47,285 bases of DNA from Escherichia phage phiKP26. The notes under the pieces are model-generated. The model saw only the letters and a list, made by a program, of their open reading frames with translations, made no database searches and was not told the DNA's origin. A program made the translations under genes and the position numbers. Below are positions 3,298 to 47,285 of this stretch, in pieces. The first letter of the stretch is position 1; every line of letters begins with the position of its first letter. The stretch lies in sequence record KC579452, one strand, 5' to 3'.

Positions 3298-3813
3298 ATG
3301 TCAGAAGAGAAAAAAATTCACCAGAAGATTGGTAACTTCAAGGAGCTTTACAATAAGAAGTATGGCGACATTGCCAATCTTAAGATTAACCACAGATACA
3401 CTCCCGAGCAGGTATTCGACATGGCTGTAAGGTATTTCAGCTGGGCTGAAGAGCAGGCAATTAAAGCTATCGAGACAGCAAGCTTTCAGGGTGTCGTAAC
3501 GGAAAACCTTGTTCACAAGCCGAGGGTATTTACGATAACTGGATTCCAGCTTTTCTGCGGCGTTGGTCATAATGCTATTAGCAAATGGCGCTCATCACCA
3601 GGATTCGATGAAGTTATGGAGTTCGTCGACTCAGTTATCTTTGAACAGAAGTACCAGTTGGGTGTTAACAACATCGTCAACCCTGGACTTATTAGCAAAG
3701 ACCTTGGCATCGATAAGCCGCAAGAGGTTAACATCAACAACGCTTCTAATGCTGTAGTAAACGACGAGGAAGCAATGAAGTCTGCTCTGGCTTCTGTAAT
3801 GGATAAACTATGA
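3298..3813 (+). CDS. putative terminase small subunit
   Basis: 171-aa ORF immediately upstream of and overlapping the large terminase; call is by position only. Confidence 0.5.
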   Translation: MSEEKKIHQKIGNFKELYNKKYGDIANLKINHRYTPEQVFDMAVRYFSWAEEQAIKAIETASFQGVVTENLVHKPRVFTITGFQLFCGVGHNAISKWRSSPGFDEVMEFVDSVIFEQKYQLGVNNIVNPGLISKDLGIDKPQEVNINNASNAVVNDEEAMKSALASVMDKL

Positions 3814-29103: not shown

Positions 29104-29392
29104 AAATAAATAAAGCTGTTCCAAAATAAAAGGGGCCTAAAACCCTAAATAAAACAAAATATGATATGAATTGGGACATATTCTCTGATATNNNGATTGG
29201 TAAGGCGGCGTGGAANTATAGAGAAGAAATACGGCAAGAGTAAATNGGAAGATATAAAGGATAAAAAGGAGGAAAGATTAGAAATGAAGAGATGGAGAGC
29301 GTAAGCATAGGAATTATCGAGCTACCTNCTTTGCTAGCGAGGCGCAAATTAGCTGGTATGACGAAGCATTTCAGGAAGGAAAAGTTATCTCT

Positions 29393-33402: not shown

Positions 33403-33876
33403 TTACTCTTTAGCTTTTCGTGCTTCTTCTCTTTCTTTCTTAACCTTTCGCCATGATTTACGCTGCGGCTTGGTTGCTAACTCAGCTTCTGTAACAACTC
33501 GAAGCATCTGACGCTTCTTGCATCGCAGTGTTAGAGGCTTGCCGTTACCGTCGAACTGTAAATCAGGTCGGCAGAATGTAGCCCTGAACCCCTCGCCAGT
33601 TCGCTTATATCGATTATGCGCAAGCTGTGCGCCGCGAGCTGAAATCATTCCCCGCTTACACCATTCTTCTACAGCCTGGCGCGTAACCTTTAGCTGCTTA
33701 GCTAGATTGGCCTTGCTGCCGTAGAAGTCCAATACAATCTCAAGGCGCGCCCTTAATCCCGCTCTCACTTCATCCTTTAGTACATAGTAACCTGATGGAC
33801 GCTTACGCGGCTTCTTGTCTTCTGTGCGAATTGTTCCGTTGTTACCATTAAGAGTACGCTTGTCAATTGAATCCAT
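33403..33876 (-). CDS. Cro/YdaS-like HTH DNA-binding protein with basic N- and C-terminal tails
   Basis: 157 aa; LAKQLKVTRQAVEEWCKRGMI...CRPDL matches the YdaS/Cro-type HTH pattern; divergent from the helicase across an intergenic region holding the palindrome element. Confidence 0.55.
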   Translation of the reverse strand: MDSIDKRTLNGNNGTIRTEDKKPRKRPSGYYVLKDEVRAGLRARLEIVLDFYGSKANLAKQLKVTRQAVEEWCKRGMISARGAQLAHNRYKRTGEGFRATFCRPDLQFDGNGKPLTLRCKKRQMLRVVTEAELATKPQRKSWRKVKKEREEARKAKE

Positions 33877-33889
33877 TTTCTCACCTCAA

Positions 33890-33932
33890 TAGCACTTTTT
33901 GTTAAACATTGGTTTATATGGCTGTTATTATA
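33890..33932 (+). promoter_or_regulatory. palindrome element in the divergent HTH/helicase intergenic region
   Basis: tagcactttttgtta followed by an AT-rich -10-like tract and leader ...caatcgaacgaaca before the helicase ATG at 33969; the HTH gene starts 14 nt to the left on the other strand. Confidence 0.4.
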
Positions 33933-38947: not shown

Positions 38948-39022
38948 CACAAATAGTCAAGAAACTACCAGAAAAAGCAGATGGTGGCAATTCAAACAAA
39001 TGAAAAAGCTAGATGAATNNGA

Positions 39023-39473: not shown

Positions 39474-39661
39474 TGTTGCAAACAATTAAAGCTGATATGG
39501 TAAAGGTGGGTGATGAGGTTTTGTTCTCAAATTGCCAACGGCAAAAAGTTAAGGCCACAAGCCTTGAGTATTACCCTAGCTGTACGTTCGTAATGATTAA
39601 GACCATGGGCGGTAACTGCTTCCCAATTAATGTAAACACACTTATTTGCGTAAACCGTTAA
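39473..39661 (+). CDS. hypothetical protein
   Basis: 62-aa ORF overlapping the upstream stop (TAATG). Confidence 0.4.
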   Translation: MLQTIKADMVKVGDEVLFSNCQRQKVKATSLEYYPSCTFVMIKTMGGNCFPINVNTLICVNR

Positions 39662-39873
39662 GAGATTATCAAAATGACTAAATTATTCTGCGTTAGCAAC
39701 AAATCAAAATCACTGCCTTTCACTGTAAACAACCCTTACAGTGGTGAGTACCAGGGGGATGGTAATTACAAGATTTATGGAGATGACATGACTTGGATCT
39801 TCACCCCGATTGATGGAGAATTGGTGGAATTCATTATCGCAGACTAACTTATAAGAAACATCAACTTGAAAAC

Positions 39874-39900
39874 AGGCGGCCTTTAAGGCTGCCTTTTTTN
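39874..39900 (+). terminator. rho-independent terminator
   Basis: ggcggcc-ttta-aggctgcc hairpin followed by a T6 run, before the lysis cassette. Confidence 0.65.
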
Positions 39901-39962
39901 CGTTTATGTCAAAGTTTAATATCTGGTATTATTTAATCAAATCAACTTAAAGAGGCCGCAAC

Positions 39963-40178
39963 ATGAAGCATTTCTATGACGCAGCCGCCTTATCCGGTAG
40001 CGGAGTAGCTATGGGCGGCGGTTTATCTGACAACACAATCATCGGCATTATCGGCTTAGTTATCGCCGTATGCTTTGGNATTTTTGGCGCATGGCTGCGA
40101 TGGCGTGACAGTAAGGCGCTCCATAAAGCACTTGAGGATGGTGACATTCGAGAGGCAATGAGAATCAGGAGTAAATGA
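39963..40178 (+). CDS. holin
   Basis: 71 aa; hydrophobic core IIGIIGLVIAVCF, charged C-terminus; directly upstream of the endolysin with ATGA overlap. Confidence 0.6.
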   Translation: MKHFYDAAALSGSGVAMGGGLSDNTIIGIIGLVIAVCFXIFGAWLRWRDSKALHKALEDGDIREAMRIRSK

Positions 40179-41399: not shown

Positions 41400-42989
41400 T
41401 TACCCCAGCAGCCGTGGATTGATATATACCTTGTCACCAATCAGGCAGGTATAGTTTTTATCATCAAGCATCGGGAGTAAGTGGTCTTTAATTTTAGCCA
41501 TAACACCAGCCTGTGACTCGAAAGGTCGAACCTTACGCGCAGCTTCATAAAGTGAGCGCAAACCCACAACTCCTTTACTGTTCTTGCCTTGCTTGATAAG
41601 GATATCAATTAACTTGTTCATCTCAGCGTTATCGCCAGCATGACCAGCTGCGTTAGCAGAAGATAAGTAAGTCTTGCTAAGTTCTTCAAACATCAATAAA
41701 GCCTCCTGCATCGTTTCCAGTCCAATCTCCCTGGACTTCTGCGGACTACCGCCATTTGGATTAAACCAGTTACGTATGGTGTGAAGAACGGCAGCAAGGC
41801 GAATAACCTGCTTATCCATTTTACCTAGTGCGCCACGGAGCATTGTGTGTGAATACTTGCCGCCATCCGCAAGGTGTGGCTCCATTTCCTGTCGAGCACG
41901 GTTAAGGTGCTTCATTGCTGAGTTACTAATAGTCAACTTCACATCTTGCTCACTCATAATTTCATGAACAAGACGGAAGTAATCAGCCTTCAACGCTCCG
42001 TCAATCGGCTCATATGTTGACTCGCCATTATCATCGACGAAAACACGCTCACCAAGGAATGACTTTTCACGCACAAGCAAGAAACGTTCGGATACACCAA
42101 TACCGCGAGCACCAGCATTCATGATTGCGACTATTGTTTCATCCTGCGCAATTACAGAAATACACCCCATAGCAATAAAGCTCATGTTGTTCTCTGCGTT
42201 CGCACGCGCGATAGATACGTTACCAGCATCCCAGGCCTTAAGTACCAGTTCGCTGTTTGTTTNCTTTGTTCCATCACCATAGGTCATGCCAAGCAGTGAG
42301 TTGACGCTCGTCGCCTCATCCGAGATGACAGCGAAGCTACCCTGACGATGGTTAATGCGTGCCAGACCTTCAGGAGTAGTATCAGATACAGGGAATACGA
42401 TGTCGCAAAGTTTCTCGAGCTTATCTTCCAGCTCCTCCTTCTCCTCAAACAAACCAGCCATCTCAGAAGGCGACTTCTCCTGCTTCATTTCTTTAGCCAG
42501 AGCCGACAGCTTGGCCATAATCTTTTTACGGTCACGCTTACGCAGATCGTTTAGTCGCTCAGTCTCTGCAATCATTGGAGCCAGAGACAGCGAGTTAATG
42601 GCGGATTTACCAGTTGATGGAGGCTGGCTGGTCACTACATACAGTGATGTTGGTTGTTGAGTTCCGTGATACTCAACCGTAAAGCGACCTAACATAGCTG
42701 CCGAGATGCAACCAAGGAAGTGCATATAAGCAGATGATTCAGGAAACTGAACAGAACGAGCAATGTTGCTTGATAGTTTGCCAACTACATCATAGTCGTT
42801 ACCAAGCGAGATAACAGGATACTTGTCGCCAGTAGAATCAATCTCAACCGGAGCTTTCCAGAATGATGCGCTCTGGCGATAACCGTTCGCATTAATAGCA
42901 ACACGTAAAGGAGGTAATCCATCCTGAGCGGCAACAGCCATTACTTGTTCAACAGTCAATTTGTCATCATTAAAATCAAACATTATCAT
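41400..42989 (-). CDS. P-loop NTPase of unknown function (Walker A-like PPSTGKS, Walker B-like AVISDEA)
   Basis: 529 aa; N- and C-terminal segments are paralogous to the short protein at 46389-46961. Confidence 0.5.
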   Translation of the reverse strand: MIMFDFNDDKLTVEQVMAVAAQDGLPPLRVAINANGYRQSASFWKAPVEIDSTGDKYPVISLGNDYDVVGKLSSNIARSVQFPESSAYMHFLGCISAAMLGRFTVEYHGTQQPTSLYVVTSQPPSTGKSAINSLSLAPMIAETERLNDLRKRDRKKIMAKLSALAKEMKQEKSPSEMAGLFEEKEELEDKLEKLCDIVFPVSDTTPEGLARINHRQGSFAVISDEATSVNSLLGMTYGDGTKXTNSELVLKAWDAGNVSIARANAENNMSFIAMGCISVIAQDETIVAIMNAGARGIGVSERFLLVREKSFLGERVFVDDNGESTYEPIDGALKADYFRLVHEIMSEQDVKLTISNSAMKHLNRARQEMEPHLADGGKYSHTMLRGALGKMDKQVIRLAAVLHTIRNWFNPNGGSPQKSREIGLETMQEALLMFEELSKTYLSSANAAGHAGDNAEMNKLIDILIKQGKNSKGVVGLRSLYEAARKVRPFESQAGVMAKIKDHLLPMLDDKNYTCLIGDKVYINPRLLG

Positions 42990-43241
42990 CTCTCTCTAAA
43001 TGCCCCCGAAGGGGCTTGATTATTTACTTGATACGAACTTCAATCATCTGACCTTTATGAGGAAGATACAGCTTTGCGCGACCTCTAATCATTACGGTGA
43101 TGATATTCTCCTTAAGGTCAACGTGAAGTACTTTGCGGAACAGTGGCCCCATTTTTACCATCATGCCAGGTTTGATGTTTTCGATAGTAGTCATGATATC
43201 CATTTTTTAGCCCTTTTAATGTATTTCGTTTCGATGAAGAG

Positions 43242-43285
43242 AATATATCAATTTTTGTTGTTAAGGTCTTTAGCAAAAAGTGCCA
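43242..43285 (-). promoter_or_regulatory. palindrome/-10 promoter-like element (minus strand)
   Basis: Minus reading: tggcactttttgcta-N23-tatatt-ctcttcatcgaaacgaaa, then a 59-aa ORF starting near 43200. Confidence 0.4.
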
Positions 43286-43439
43286 TTAAAGACCAACCAG
43301 ACATTTGCCAACTACAACAGCGATTGCGCCCATGAAGCCAAAGAANCCAAACTTAATTACTTGTTCCATTACCGCATCAACTGCTTTAGAGATGTTTTTC
43401 ATTTTGTTCACCTTAGTGTTTGTCTTCTTGATGGAAACA

Positions 43440-43483
43440 AATATACCCGCCGAAGCGGGTAGTGTCATTAGCAAAAAGTGCTA
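43440..43483 (-). promoter_or_regulatory. palindrome/-10 promoter-like element with embedded GC hairpin (minus strand)
   Basis: Minus reading: tagcactttttgcta, spacer containing cccgc-ttcg-gcggg, then tatatt; small membrane ORF downstream. Confidence 0.4.
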
Positions 43484-43678
43484 TTAATTAAAACCTTTCG
43501 CCAGATGATAGCTTATTACTAGGCATTTTATCTATGAAAGTTTCAAGCAACCATTTTCTAGTAATGAAATCAACCACGCAAAAATAGCCTCTATCTTTGC
43601 AGTATCTGTACTTAGTGCCGTGTTGTATAGACTTGCAATAAATTGAATCTTTTGTTATGTAAATTCTTACTGTCTCAT

Positions 43679-44032
43679 TCATTTGTATTGGCTCTCGAAT
43701 TTATAAGTTCCGCAAACAGTTGTAAATCCAACATCTTCAGAGCGAATCAGCGTCCATGAGTCACCATCTTCATCAAATATTTTACCAGCGTTCTGTCCAA
43801 GAGATGCGGTCATTTCTACCTGATAGCGACGACCTTGCTTGAATGACTTTGATACTCCTGATTTATGGTTAACAAATGTGACATAAAGAGTCTTAGTCTT
43901 GATGTAACGCCCCCGCTCAGTGAGATTTTGCCATTTACCATGAATCTTGATTTGCTCAATACCATCTTTAACGCGAGCTTTAAACAGATTGTTATCTGAG
44001 CTGATCCAGTTTTTAGTGATAGTGGTAGCCAT
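43679..44032 (-). CDS. hypothetical protein
   Basis: 117-aa ORF in the minus-strand small-gene island. Confidence 0.4.
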   Translation of the reverse strand: MATTITKNWISSDNNLFKARVKDGIEQIKIHGKWQNLTERGRYIKTKTLYVTFVNHKSGVSKSFKQGRRYQVEMTASLGQNAGKIFDEDGDSWTLIRSEDVGFTTVCGTYKFESQYK

Positions 44033-44057
44033 TACTATTTTCCTTTTNGGTTTGTTA

Positions 44058-44360
44058 TTAGTTAGCGTTATGACGTTCGATATAGTCGCGGATTGTTTCG
44101 CCTACGCTTTTAGCGGCACCAAAAGTGCCCTTTGCGTGGCGTGAATCGCGGTACGTCTGGAAGAATTTACGAGCGATGTTTGCGAACATTGAACCAGTCA
44201 CGCGAGCATCACCGAAATTTGTTTCGATAGCGTTGCTAATGCCATCCTTGAACTCATTTTCAGTCATGAACATCTCTGCCATGCCAGCAGTCTCGAAAAG
44301 GTTAGCTAATTCATTCATGTTGTTATGGTCTTCGGCTGTAAACAGGTTCATGTTAATCAT
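44058..44360 (-). CDS. hypothetical protein
   Basis: 100-aa ORF preceded on the minus strand by a full promoter/leader element. Confidence 0.45.
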   Translation of the reverse strand: MINMNLFTAEDHNNMNELANLFETAGMAEMFMTENEFKDGISNAIETNFGDARVTGSMFANIARKFFQTYRDSRHAKGTFGAAKSVGETIRDYIERHNAN

Positions 44361-44394
44361 CTTCGTGATTCTTTAGTTTCGTTTCGATGAGATG

Positions 44395-44437
44395 AATATA
44401 CAATAAAAGCCCCGAAGGGCTTTAGCAATTCGTGCTA
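44395..44437 (-). promoter_or_regulatory. palindrome/-10 promoter-like element with embedded terminator hairpin (minus strand)
   Basis: Minus reading: tagcacgaattgcta, spacer aaagccc-ttcg-gggcttt, then tatatt-catctcatcgaaacgaaa; upstream of CDS 44058-44360. Confidence 0.45.
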
Positions 44438-44587
44438 TTNCTTTGCTGCTTTTGCAATTGCCTTCTGGACGATGTTGAAGCTCTCAATCAAATCTTCTTT
44501 GAAGTAGTCACCAACAGGCCAACCCTTACCGCTGTACTTGGCTATGGTTTCTAGATCGTAATAGTTCAAGTCAGATGGCTTTAGCAT

Positions 44588-44827
44588 TTACTTAACCTCA
44601 TCAAAAGTTGCAATACCAGGAATAAACACTCCAACCTTCCAGCCTGTAATGGCAATCCATCCAGAATCGTGCTTGTGTGGTCGCTCAGCGCCATTAATAA
44701 CCCATTCGTTCGGGATTGCCTTGCCGTTAATGATTAGACGCTCAGCGTCGTATAAAGAGCCTTTTACGAATGGTGTTAGTATTTTCTTGTCGGTACTTGT
44801 AATGCAATTGGTGCAGCGAATTTTCAT
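44588..44827 (-). CDS. hypothetical protein
   Basis: 79-aa ORF; small ORFs flank it (44441-44587 and 44832-45011, the latter Cys-rich). Confidence 0.4.
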   Translation of the reverse strand: MKIRCTNCITSTDKKILTPFVKGSLYDAERLIINGKAIPNEWVINGAERPHKHDSGWIAITGWKVGVFIPGIATFDEVK

Positions 44828-45006
44828 ATCTCAATCCTCAAATAAATGGTAAACATTCGACGCAGCCAAGTCCATCGCAGCACAGAAATTCATCTTCTGA
44901 CTGGAATTGCTTAGCCAAATCAATGTCCAGCTTTCCGCGCAGCACAAGGTTGGTGTAAACTTCGTTAAGTCCAATCAGTGCGCATTCGTGGCGCAACTCG
45001 TCTTTA

Positions 45007-45201
45007 TCAATCTTCATAACGCTCTACCTCGAAGTTGTATACCATTACGTTTCTATCATGCTTGTTCTTTATCACCATTGACTCAAGCTCTTCGTATACA
45101 GCCACTACATTGTAAACACCACCAGGCTCAAGGCCGTAGAATTCGTACTCTTCATCGTCAAAACCATCCGTTTTACTTAGTGCTGTTATTTTNACCTTCA
45201 T
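45007..45201 (-). CDS. hypothetical protein
   Basis: 64 aa; first gene after a full promoter/leader element with RBS (gaggag). Confidence 0.45.
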   Translation of the reverse strand: MKXKITALSKTDGFDDEEYEFYGLEPGGVYNVVAVYEELESMVIKNKHDRNVMVYNFEVERYED

Positions 45202-45228
45202 ATCTATCTCCTCGTTGTTGATGAGTTT

Positions 45229-45272
45229 ACTATAGCCTTGCCATCCCCATTTGTCTTTAGCAAAAAGTGCTA
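45229..45272 (-). promoter_or_regulatory. palindrome/-10 promoter-like element (minus strand), first promoter of the leftward operon from region B
   Basis: Minus reading: tagcactttttgcta-N23-tatagt-aaactcatcaacaacgaggag, then ATG at 45201. Confidence 0.45.
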
Positions 45273-45289
45273 TTCGTCAGATTTATGGA

Positions 45290-45870
45290 TTGTTGCAGGC
45301 ATTGCGATGATTAGCATGACTATTACACATAAAGCAATATTTCATCGATTGCAATGATTTTCTGGACTGTTGCGAATTTATCAATGATTGATGGATTGAT
45401 GGAATGAAGTGAGGGTTGTATCAACTAGTTGGTTGGTTTTAGCTTTCACAAGGAGCTTTCCTTTATGTACGCGTTATGGCTTGTTCAACCGTGTAGAGAA
45501 ATTGCCATATTTACGCCATCCACGCCAGTTTACGCGCTGGTTACAAANTAAATCCCTTATATAACAACCATTTAGATTTATTATTATTATTATTATTATA
45601 TATGTTATTCCGTAACCATGATTATCTGAGATATTGGTGATATTTTTTGATATTGCGCGGCGCATAAAGATTTAGATAAAGAGATAGGGATGCAAGCGGG
45701 GTGGCGAAAATGGCTTAACATACCATAACGGCAATAACAGCCTTGATACGACTAGCGTCAGCATGTAACAATTTAGCATAACGTGCGATTACCGAGTTGA
45801 ACGTGTAAATAACGCTTGCGACATTCACCAATCATGGTAAGATGCTCTCACACCAAACGAGAGGAGTAGT
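45290..45870. promoter_or_regulatory. AT-rich non-coding switch region B, paralogous to 26040-26520 (phased ACGC boxes, (TTA)6 tract); candidate origin
   Basis: ACGC boxes at 45513/45522/45532; ttattattattattattat at 45578-45596 with flanks similar to 26141-26215; tandem gattgatgg x2 near 45390; no credible ORF. Confidence 0.5.
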
Positions 45871-45873
45871 AAA

Positions 45874-46389
45874 ATGAGTAATACAATTCGTGAAGCAAAC
45901 CCGACACTTGGCGACCTGGTGCGGCACCTTGTTAAGATGGCTCTTAATTCAGAGGATGGAAGCGTAACAGTTCCCGTTAAGTTGCTTTACAAGAATCTTT
46001 ACGGAGAAATTGATAACGACTATGTAGCAGCTGACTTTAGACCTGGCGGCAAATATTCACTTCCAAAGCTTAAGGCTTCCTATGTTTCAAATACAGCCAG
46101 CAGAATGCAGGAAGTTAAAGACGCAGATAAGCGCGCAAGGTTCTCTTGTGGAGAGATGGAGTATAATGGTGATGAGCATTATTGCGTAAAAATCACAATG
46201 GTCAACGGTGCTGTTAAGAATGGAACCCGAGCTAAGACAAACAGTCAATTAGAGGAGAAAGCGGTAAGCGAGTTTAAAGCTAGGCTACTTAAGCTTTCCC
46301 CNAGCGTAGCAGGAATGAGTGGAGATGAACTGAAGGGTGCGGTAGCTATGATTAACGCATATCAGGAAATGATTAAGGAGACTAAATAA
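45874..46389 (+). CDS. hypothetical protein
   Basis: 171-aa ORF with a strong RBS (gagaggag); first rightward gene after region B. Confidence 0.5.
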   Translation: MSNTIREANPTLGDLVRHLVKMALNSEDGSVTVPVKLLYKNLYGEIDNDYVAADFRPGGKYSLPKLKASYVSNTASRMQEVKDADKRARFSCGEMEYNGDEHYCVKITMVNGAVKNGTRAKTNSQLEEKAVSEFKARLLKLSXSVAGMSGDELKGAVAMINAYQEMIKETK

Positions 46390-46961
46390 TGTTTGATTTC
46401 AACGAGGATAAGTTAACTGATGACCAGGTGATGGAAGTCGCCAGGCAAGATAACCTGCCGCCACTTCGTGTGGCAATCAGTACTAATGGATACCGCCAAT
46501 CATTCAATTTCTGGCCCAGCGCCGAAGAGATGCTGTGCGTCAAGTTGAGCTACAAATACGGTGTCGTAGTTAGCAGGATTAGCCGCCATGGCTGGAATGG
46601 AGTGGTTGGCATTCGATCTCTATACGAGGCAATNCGAAATGTCCAGCCATTCGTCGGGCGCGAAGGGATTATGCATGACCTGACAATTAACATCATCCCA
46701 GAACTACAAGAGNCGGGAATTGTTNGCCTCATTGGCGATAAGATTTATGTTCATCCGGCCCTGGTTGAGATGGATAAGGACGACGTGCAAAACTGGTGCA
46801 GTCAGTGCCGATCCGACGTGCCACGCTCAAACTACGTGCCACCGCAAACAACAATCCATGGCTATAATGCCGATGAGGTGGAGAAGGCCATACAGTTCTA
46901 CCGGAAAGCGAAAGCTCTCCGAAAGGGGAAATTTAAAAAAAATGAACCATCTATCAATTAA
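46389..46961 (+). CDS. short paralogue of the 529-aa P-loop protein, lacking the ATPase core; 3' end runs into low-quality sequence
   Basis: N-terminus MFDFNEDKLTDDQVMEVARQDNLPPLRVAISTNGYRQS matches the N-terminus of 41400-42989; a later block (VVGIRSLYEA...LIGDKIYVHPAL) matches its C-terminus. In the cleaner repeat copy the ORF ends at 473. Confidence 0.5.
   Translation: MFDFNEDKLTDDQVMEVARQDNLPPLRVAISTNGYRQSFNFWPSAEEMLCVKLSYKYGVVVSRISRHGWNGVVGIRSLYEAXRNVQPFVGREGIMHDLTINIIPELQEXGIVXLIGDKIYVHPALVEMDKDDVQNWCSQCRSDVPRSNYVPPQTTIHGYNADEVEKAIQFYRKAKALRKGKFKKNEPSIN
46542..46922. repeat. Direct repeat copy B (matches 66-446)
   Basis: Same as copy A; after 46922 the sequence degrades instead of continuing as 447 onward. 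Confidence 0.85.
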
Positions 46962-47285
46962 AAAAAATAAGTNANNAACCCCCACCACCAAAAAAACCAN
47001 NAACACANNNANAAATAACAACAAATAACAACCAAAAACCCANNNAAAAACANCAACACAACANCACNAANAANNCNCCACANAANAAAGGACAAATAAC
47101 ANNAGGATGCGAAGANACGNAGNNNNGCNNNNAGTANNCTNCGCAANNNNNGACAGGCNNNGGTGGACCCTCGTCACCGTAACACTTACAGGTACGCACG
47201 GACGGTAACGGTCGGACGAGGCAGGGTACGTACGGTCGGTAGGGACGGCGGGTACCTAGGTAGGGGTACTTTCGGAACGGTAACG
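46923..47285. other. Low-quality / artefactual sequence tail (N-rich, A/C homopolymer-rich)
   Basis: Dense Ns, poly-A and poly-C runs, no coherent reading frame; the ORFs predicted here are full of X. Confidence 0.8.

Follow-up and report, generated by a model that had tools for sequence, protein, structure and literature searches.

The repeat elements and small genes of the leftward arm of Escherichia phage phiKP26

In the re-annotated genome of phage TLS, a 21-nucleotide (nt) repeat, aaATAGCACnnnTTGnTAAAA, occurs in 21 copies that are oriented in the direction of transcription, lie ∼76 nt upstream of start codons and fall into A, T and G subclasses (PMC11447400). Repeats of this type are also found in T1, Rtp and Rogue1, and their function was left open, with a stoperator, an enhancer site or an UP element being proposed (PMC11447400). 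A comparable arrangement has been described for the PeSL cassettes of T4-like phages, which carry promoter and stem-loop motifs in hyperplastic regions, at the indel and replacement junctions of close relatives (PMC2839356, PMC4122927). At the protein level, the small and dispensable Gp54 of phage Bas11 triggers CapRelSJ46 and is suspected by its authors to inhibit another defence (PMC11578894). Here we compare with these systems an island of nine small minus-strand genes, located at positions 43024-45201 of a 47,285-nt stretch of DNA from Escherichia phage phiKP26 (KC579452; this whole stretch is referred to here as the window), together with the repeat elements that precede these genes. We consider it probable that the island is an ordinary hyperplastic, swappable, leftward accessory arm of a T1-like phage, made up of four units that each start with the known family repeat.

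Nucleotide comparison showed that the island is 99.8% identical to Escherichia phage C119 (NC_042046), which is classified in Rogunavirus, Rogunavirinae, Drexlerviridae. Phages AHP24/AHS24, Rogue1 and AHP42 are 93 to 97% identical to the island across 72 to 88% of its length, and similarity is lower for JK06, e4/1c and Rtp. The island is the counterpart of C119 gp50-gp57, every one of which is labelled "hypothetical protein"; we refer to these genes as g50 to g57, and to a further gene, unannotated in the C119 RefSeq and JK06 records, as gX. On one side the island is bordered by a DUF3987 helicase gene and on the other by a 670-bp noncoding divergent region.

Elements, terminators and transcription units

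Four composite elements are found in the island, each with the order ATAGCAC-N3-TTGCTAAA, a weak -35, TATAnT and a CATCGAAACGAA leader; like the genes, they lie on the minus strand. In P57 (45202-45272), the motif TAGCACTTTTTGCTAA (45257-45272) is followed by the -35 sequence AAGACA, a 17-nt spacer devoid of any hairpin, the -10 sequence TATAGT and the leader CATCAACAACGAGGAG with a ribosome-binding site (RBS). P53 (44361-44437) consists of the motif TAGCACGAATTGCTAA (44422-44437), the -10 sequence TATATT and the leader CATCGAAACGAAA, whereas P51 (43403-43483) again carries TAGCACTTTTTGCTAA (43468-43483), here with a -35-like ATGACA and the -10 sequence TATATT. P50 (43204-43285) has the motif TGGCACTTTTTGCTAA (43270-43285), a TATATT preceded by TGA and the leader CATCGAAACGAAA. 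The distances from motif start to ATG are 71, 77, 81 and 82 nt for g57, g53, g51 and g50, respectively. An earlier note on this DNA had described full palindrome/-10/leader elements ahead of four of the small open reading frames (ORFs), and four are present, at 43270, 43468, 44422 and 45257. It had further assigned each gene its own promoter; since the nine genes share four promoters, they are not individually promoted.

In a consensus scan, the -10 sequence was either TATAGT or TATATT, and a weak -35 (AAGACA or ATGACA, matching at four to five of six positions) was present at 17 nt in two of the four island elements. The family consensus at the -35 position is AAAAC, and the upstream motif is centred near -43.

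The element is not confined to the arm. The sequence TAGCA-N5-TGCTAA gave 22 strand-matches in the whole window, compared to 1.45 expected from shuffled sequence. Full elements number 12 genome-wide, four of them within the island, which makes up 5% of the genome, and all 12 sites have the same layout of motif, 20 to 22 nt, TATAGT/TATATT, ∼5 nt, a CATCGAAACGAA-like leader, RBS and ATG. The remaining eight, at 458, 1574, 18868, 26029 (minus strand), 28405, 33890, 36286 and 39212, precede nonstructural genes, among them those for Erf, a large helicase and a cor-like lipoprotein, small genes of the rightward arm and others; two of the eight stand before small genes embedded in the tail region, the cor-like gene among them. 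No element is found in front of the terminase, head or main tail operons when the 12 are mapped genome-wide. Being used across the genome, the element does not mark the island or any special class of genes. By their central triplet the copies form A, T and G classes, those of the island being T, T, G and T, and T-class copies are seen only in the island and at 33890.

Across ∼60 related loci we collected 389 distinct copies, with the consensus aAATAGCACtttTTGcTAAAAc-N16-GgTATaaT-N5-CAtcgaAAc.AAa; in 221 of these, the position of the -10 is constant, at +37 counted from the start of the motif. The palindrome named in the earlier note holds only in part: the motif is near-palindromic in this phage, whereas in the family TGCTAA (199 copies) is nearly matched in number by TGTTAA (172 copies, 44%), which breaks the symmetry. 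The palindrome is thus a local feature of this phage and no conserved requirement, and the idea of a strict palindrome or dimeric operator is weakened accordingly. A sigma-54 promoter (TGGCAC-N5-TTGCW) was also considered and rejected, since the spacing in T(A/G)GCAC-N3-TTGC is 2 nt short and the GG is mostly AG.

Two of the island elements contain a hairpin within the promoter spacer, as had been noticed before. The hairpin in P51 (43444-43461; TACCCGCTTCGGCGGGTA plus a T-run) has a folding energy of -12.5 kcal/mol and that in P53 (44406-44423; AAAGCCCTTCGGGGCTTT plus a T-run) one of -12.2 kcal/mol; both combine a 7-bp stem, a UUCG loop and a T-rich tail, as intrinsic terminators do, and no structure was obtained on folding the spacers of P57 and P50. 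Nesting of this kind is frequent in the family: in 124 of 378 distinct elements, the 27 nt that separate motif and -10 fold into a hairpin of at most -9 kcal/mol, compared to 1 of 378 shuffled controls. Since the 3' arm of the hairpin abuts the T-rich -10, one short stretch can end one transcript and start the next. With the preceding transcript ended between motif and -10 of the next unit, two of the units would have stop-and-restart insulation. A third hairpin, between g50 and the helicase start (43002-43015, minus strand), has a 5-bp GC stem (-11.1 kcal/mol) and a poor U-tract, and may act as an attenuator or weak terminator. The stretch from this hairpin to the helicase gene contains no promoter element. 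The gene g50 appears to be cotranscribed with the helicase gene (gp49), which is probably transcribed from P50.

Taken together, this anatomy would allow host sigma-70 RNA polymerase to read the arm as four compact transcription units. The P57 unit would comprise g57-g56-g55-g54 and be ended by the hairpin at 44406-44423, and the P53 unit would comprise g53-g52-gX and be ended by that at 43444-43461. P51 would serve g51, and P50 would serve g50, followed by the weak hairpin and the helicase gene.

Indirect support for such activity comes from Bas11 (phage JohannLBurckhardt), where an ATAGCAC composite element makes up exactly the 75 nt ahead of gene 54. Zhang et al. reported that escape mutations directly upstream of this gene reduce its expression, and they detected Gp54-FLAG in E. 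coli MG1655 that carried the gene with "its native promoter" on pBR322 (PMC11578894). Since Gp54 is made from an element-bearing plasmid in uninfected MG1655, host polymerase alone would appear to suffice for the element, consistent with early expression. T1 Cor acts early, according to a review-type statement (PMC13164509), in agreement with the element ahead of the cor-like gene. The arm is probably expressed early; a literature search for time-resolved Drexlerviridae transcriptomes found none in the library searched.

The nine genes, their distribution and the mosaic junctions

The nine ORFs, of 38 to 117 amino acids (aa), fill positions 43024-45201 between the helicase gene and the divergent region, in line with the at least eight packed short minus-strand ORFs of this size range counted in the earlier note. 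The promoter-proximal first gene of the arm, g57 (C119 gp57; 45007-45201), encodes an acidic protein of 64 aa (isoelectric point [pI], 4.4; phrog_14327). It is followed by g56 (gp56; 44838-45017), whose acidic 59-aa product (phrog_9053) ends in CCDGLGCVECLPFI; this is the Cys-rich ORF previously put at 44832-45011, which exists as described but lies 6 nt away from those coordinates. Next come g55 (gp55, a homologue of Rtp73; 44588-44827; 79 aa) and g54 (gp54, a homologue of Rtp72; 44435-44587; 50 aa; pI 6.1), with the start codon of g54 abutting the stop of g55. The P53 unit begins with g53 (gp53; 44058-44360), encoding a mildly acidic, helical-bundle protein of 100 aa, and continues with g52 (gp52, a homologue of T1 gp07 and Rtp69; 43679-44032), encoding a basic (pI 9.6), all-beta protein of 117 aa, and with gX (43488-43682; 64 aa, basic), whose ATG overlaps the g52 stop (ATGA). 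The 38-aa product of g51 (43286-43402) has a C-terminal hydrophobic segment (GRAVY, 1.18); it is the membrane peptide of the earlier note, which had located it correctly. The last gene, g50 (gp50; 43024-43203), encodes a basic protein of 59 aa. The several acidic proteins mentioned in that note come down to three (g53, g56 and g57; pI values of 4.4, 4.4 and 5.3 among them); five of the nine are clearly basic (pI 9.1 to 10.2), and g54 is near neutral.

Each of the nine ORFs has an RBS or a coupled start, and eight, the exception being gX, match PHROG families of no assigned function. Comparison with diverged homologues gave ratios of nonsynonymous to synonymous polymorphism (pN/pS) of 0.13 to 0.40 for g52, 0.08 to 0.29 for g53, 0 to 0.33 for g54, 0.11 to 0.20 for g55 and 0.05 to 0.25 for g56, and purifying selection thus acts on these five genes. 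The test covered g52-g56, diverged homologues being too few for g50, g51, g57 and gX. In g50, which has a 44%-identical homologue in another phage, the substitutions seen in relatives are silent on the minus strand and alter an overlapping plus-strand ORF (43000-43335). It is this ORF, running over g50 and g51, that is annotated instead in JK06, Rogue1 and UDF157lw, and it is probably spurious in those records. The frame of gX is intact in the BECP10 copy at 69% identity. For g51, GenBank gives a 60-aa product (C119 gp51, 43286-43474) whose start lies inside the gene's own promoter, upstream of the -10, and the 38-aa reading is therefore more likely. Judged from these sequence features, the nine small proteins are products of genuine coding genes.

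To see how the genes are distributed, we scored 63 loci (55 viral loci fetched with the helicase and eight phage records); across ∼60 loci, the 4.5 kb upstream of the helicase gene hold 164 ORF families. Of the arm genes, only g52 was matched by tblastn in each of the 63 loci (37 to 100% identity), and ORF maps of Drexlerviridae loci nearly always place its family beside the helicase gene or with one small gene in between. The family is restricted to these phages, with 27 clusters among 1.84 billion representatives. Within the 63 loci, g55 and g54 are restricted to Rogunavirinae and Braunvirinae, and g56 occurs in a subset of the loci of these two subfamilies. The locus comparison found g50, g51, g53 and g57 in the closest relatives only, and gX in four phages only; g53 was in addition seen in 26 phage records scattered over several subfamilies. 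Full-length g57 homologues in Braunvirinae-like relatives are 35% identical, whereas the helicase and g55 of the same phages are ∼90% and ∼88% identical. By this distribution the cargo is split into a core gene (g52), clade-level genes (g54, g55 and g56) and sporadic or fast-evolving genes (g50, g51, gX, g53 and g57).

Breakpoints taken from BLASTN of the island against all loci recur at a few positions: 43485-43494 (12 loci; upstream edge of P51), 44376-44379 (11 loci; P53 leader), 45188-45207 (11 loci; P57 leader and g57 start), 44815-44828 (9 loci; g55 start), 44437-44439 (8 loci; edge of the P53 motif) and 44032-44034 (8 loci; g52 start). Several distant relatives retain only the elements, as 60-nt islands of 88 to 96% identity. 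The conserved elements coincide with cassette borders, and genes would apparently have been swapped element by element. As a separate observation, the g52 product is only 75 to 79% identical to its AHS24, Rogue1 and AHP42 copies, whereas the flanking g53 and g54 are 100% identical and the JK06 copy of g52 is 95% identical; by this pattern, a JK06-type allele of the g52-gX segment appears to have entered a Rogue1-type arm by recombination.

Predicted structures, available for three of the nine proteins, added a link for g52. Its model is all-beta, with a C-terminal, SH3-like barrel that resembles Bas11 Gp54, and has the six-stranded small beta-barrel fold of PDB 9axb. We regard this similarity as real at the level of the predicted structure. 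The two proteins differ in that g52 is twice as long, basic and a core gene product, whereas Gp54 is dispensable, and the window has no true Gp54 homologue. Members of the Gp54 family (PF25180; TLS gp82 matches it at 5.7e-32) are encoded in the syntenic arm of TLS-, Bas07- and Bas11-type phages, behind an equivalent promoter element, at 744-965 in the TLS locus (L030) and 3498-3698 in the Bas11 locus (L065). A fusion (Rosetta-stone) search with the g52 profile returned long matches only to a cellulase and an FG-GAP protein via a DxDG-like repeat, which we judged spurious, and the name "DUF2693" given to g52 in the UDF157lw record has no Pfam support at E ≤ 10.

None of the nine proteins has a match in Pfam, NCBIfam or PADLOC, or a meaningful one among PDB sequences, and an all-versus-all profile comparison of the island families gave nothing significant. 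The g53 model (predicted local distance difference test score, 86) is a helical bundle with generic matches only, and "chemotaxis protein," its name in the UDF157lw record, finds no Pfam support at E ≤ 10. The C terminus of g56 reads CC-x4-C-x2-C-LPF, with the four Cys residues invariant in 10 homologues. In TLS/T1-like phages, 74-aa CxC-x5-CxxC-FPF proteins occupy the same place in the arm and have, like g56, a GLN[EK]E motif at the N terminus and a Cys knuckle ending in [FLI]PF at the C terminus. Judged by shared motif and position, the two are probably related, although the statistics for homology are weak (hhalign E = 0.0012; BLAST E = 0.019; hmmsearch not significant). A BFD-like [2Fe-2S] domain (Fer2_BFD, the UDF157lw name for the g56 homologue) gave no Pfam match at E ≤ 10.

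Several points weigh against parts of this picture. Although 12 of 34 breakpoint clusters fall inside elements, compared to 16% expected from the elements' share of the span (p = 0.005), the elements are similarity islands that draw alignment ends by construction, so that the statistic establishes that breakpoints and elements coincide but not that recombination takes place there; moreover, related genomes do not yield independent breakpoints. With regard to transcription, TTGCTA lies 22 nt from the -10, beyond the normal -35 distance, and plasmid read-through may account for the Gp54 signal from pBR322; promoter activity, strength and early timing are what we infer from the sequence. For g52, comparison with PF25180 gave no match even at E ≤ 10 and profile comparison with the Gp54 family was not significant. 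Finally, g50 and g52 may serve replication and not host interaction.

Around the arm, the helicase gene itself (41400-42989, minus strand) encodes a helicase/primase-type P-loop protein (gp49; Pfam E = 3e-42) and is a conserved anchor gene. On the other side, the noncoding divergent region (45202-45873) separates the two arms, with the genes beyond it running rightward; within it, an (ATA)n run is found near 45575-45600 and a degenerate copy of the element, without -10 and leader, at 45773-45788. It may be a control or origin region, and Bas11 has a comparable gap. A search for repeats in these 670 bp gave nothing convincing, and an Rfam scan of 42900-46000 gave no matches. In the rightward arm, a 190-aa ORF (46389-46961, plus strand) encodes a paralogue of the DUF3987 helicase from which the ∼420-aa ATPase core is missing: the first 48 aa and residues 71 to 126 match the two ends of the 529-aa protein with 69% and 46% identity, respectively. 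The window as a whole is a rotated C119-like genome minus two HNH homing-endonuclease genes, gp27 and gp41 of the C119 record (absent at ∼29286-29289 and ∼38969-38993). Both window ends (66-456 and 46540-46930) duplicate ∼390 bp of the C119 record (39609-39999), and the final 300 bases are rich in N (46970-47165). These features point to terminal redundancy in a circularly permuted genome, or to an overlap in its assembly.

Alternative roles of the arm

The most likely role of the nine proteins would be early modulation of the host or of host immunity. The earlier note had gone further in calling the island a candidate host-takeover or anti-defence cluster, and we find it somewhat improbable that the arm is dedicated to this function, with at least one of the nine proteins inhibiting host restriction or abortive infection or shutting down a host function. 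This idea draws on the arms of relatives: in T1/TLS-type phages, a protein of 230 to 260 aa is encoded directly upstream of the g52 homologue, in the g53 slot, and is a Dcm-like C5 methyltransferase in the BASEL records of Bas07 and Bas11, with a weak PF00145 match. Together with Gp54, the dispensable CapRelSJ46 trigger from the syntenic Bas11 arm, which may inhibit another defence (PMC11578894), this methyltransferase means that the arm of the family holds at least one probable anti-restriction enzyme and one immune-sensed protein. Ksap1, the trigger of KpAvs2, was ruled out as a further case, as it belongs to Dhillonvirus, outside this family. The acidic nature of g57, g56 and g53, the divergence of g57 relative to g55 and the helicase and the patchy occurrence of g53 across subfamilies point in the same direction, as does the strong variation in restriction sensitivity among Drexlerviridae, the cause of which is not known (PMC8594841). 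In the BASEL study, however, restriction resistance could not be tied to gene content in any simple way (PMC8594841). Moreover, searches against characterized anti-defence proteins (Ocr/Ard, Acr, Tad, Gad, Acb, etc.) gave no sequence match for any of the nine proteins and no fold match for the modelled ones. Structure prediction, one of the checks suggested in the earlier note, gave a g52 barrel resembling the CapRel trigger Gp54 and a generic bundle for g53. Most of the proteins are not acidic, g52 is a core gene, g54-g56 are kept at the level of clades rather than strains, and the genome-wide use of the promoter element marks no special gene class. For g57, g53, g56 and perhaps g51, an anti-defence role is plausible by analogy and makes a reasonable hypothesis.

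We think it unlikely that part of the arm belongs to the replication machinery, with g52, and perhaps g50, acting as an accessory to the DUF3987 helicase, for example as a DNA-binding or loading partner. The universal presence of g52 in the 63 loci, its place near the helicase gene and the confinement of its family to these phages would agree with such a role, as would its basic SH3-like barrel, a fold that often binds nucleic acid. Furthermore, no terminator of normal strength separates g50 from the helicase gene, which here has no element of its own. However, no DNA-binding motif was found in g52; Gp54, the protein that it most resembles in structure, can be dispensed with and is not known to act in replication; and most relatives have no g50, their helicase genes instead having an element of their own.

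Timing of the arm by the phage, and not by host polymerase alone, would follow if the upstream motif were an operator through which a phage regulator represses or activates all 12 units, which we consider quite doubtful. A candidate regulator is a 157-aa protein with a Cro/YdaS-like helix-turn-helix (HTH), encoded at 33403-33876 (minus strand) and divergent from the T-class element at 33890. The presence of this T-class copy in the divergent promoter region beside the HTH gene, the near-palindromic motif (TAGCA-N5-TGCTA), centred close to -43 as is typical of class II activators, and the stoperator and enhancer-binding ideas of the TLS authors all speak for an operator. Nevertheless, the symmetry is lost in the 172 TGTTAA copies and the TLS consensus is asymmetric as well; the Bas11 element drives expression in uninfected cells; and the HTH match is under the Pfam threshold.

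Finally, it is highly improbable that gX, g51 and g50 are chance ORFs between regulatory elements, as could be argued from the missing PHROG family and C119 annotation of gX, from the shortage of diverged homologues for a selection test on g50, g51, g57 and gX and from the plus-strand ORF that other annotators put across g50 and g51, since none of the three lacks an RBS or coupled start, g50 and g51 are each headed by a promoter element, the gX frame is kept open in BECP10, the substitutions in g50, which has a diverged homologue, are silent only in its own frame, and small membrane peptides recur at the equivalent position in other Drexlerviridae.

Comparison with known systems

The reading that we prefer, a swappable accessory arm of four units headed by the family repeat, does not overturn present understanding. 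The repeat element and the existence of hypothetical genes were known earlier; new here are the fixed promoter/leader architecture, the frequent nested terminator, the cassette borders at elements, the core/accessory split, the g52-Gp54 link and three annotation corrections. The latter yield a corrected gene map of the arm, which adds a missed gene, moves a start that had been placed too far upstream and flags an opposite-strand ORF of relatives as probably spurious, and the nine genes are clearly divided into core and swappable ones. The regulation and small early proteins of T1-like phages are almost unstudied, even though these phages are common laboratory contaminants and O157 biocontrol candidates, and a testable model can now be put forward in which the family repeat would join a promoter for host polymerase to a terminator and would also mark cassette borders. 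The structural link between the T1 gp07 family and Gp54 widens the context of an otherwise orphan fold.

Gene 0.3 (Ocr) of T7 is an early anti-restriction gene of a virulent coliphage. Like it, g57 is small, acidic and the first gene after the first promoter of an arm that is proposed to be read by host polymerase; the likeness ends there, since no sequence or structural similarity was found and g57 is not predicted to be a DNA mimic or anything else.

The PeSL cassettes of T4-like phages are a second known system for comparison. As in those, repeated promoter and stem-loop motifs flank small unassigned genes in a hypervariable region, and the junctions coincide with the motifs, in a test that is partly circular because the motifs themselves are conserved; recombination at the elements is what we infer from this pattern. 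The two systems differ in that their sequences and phage families are unrelated and in that the Drexlerviridae hairpin is placed within the promoter itself, after the upstream motif and ahead of the -10, and is found in only about one-third of the copies. It is conceivable, if quite unlikely, that the ATAGCAC element with its nested terminator is a sequence-unrelated counterpart of PeSL, a mobile regulatory cassette that drives gene shuffling in Drexlerviridae, and that its cargo includes a radiating beta-barrel family (g52/T1 gp07, standalone proteins of 65 to 80 aa and Gp54) engaging immune sensors such as CapRel. If so, the core protein would be the ancestral target and the small paralogues would be decoys or inhibitors.

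A third known system is the TLS repeat. The island copies match the consensus of the Drexlerviridae repeat, ATAGCAC-N3-TTGnTAAAA, and have the same sequence, orientation, intergenic location and subclasses, at 71 to 82 nt from start codons compared to ∼76 nt in TLS. In contrast, the fixed -10 and leader, the nested terminators and the link to mosaic junctions are not part of the TLS description (PMC11447400) and are added here from the sequence.

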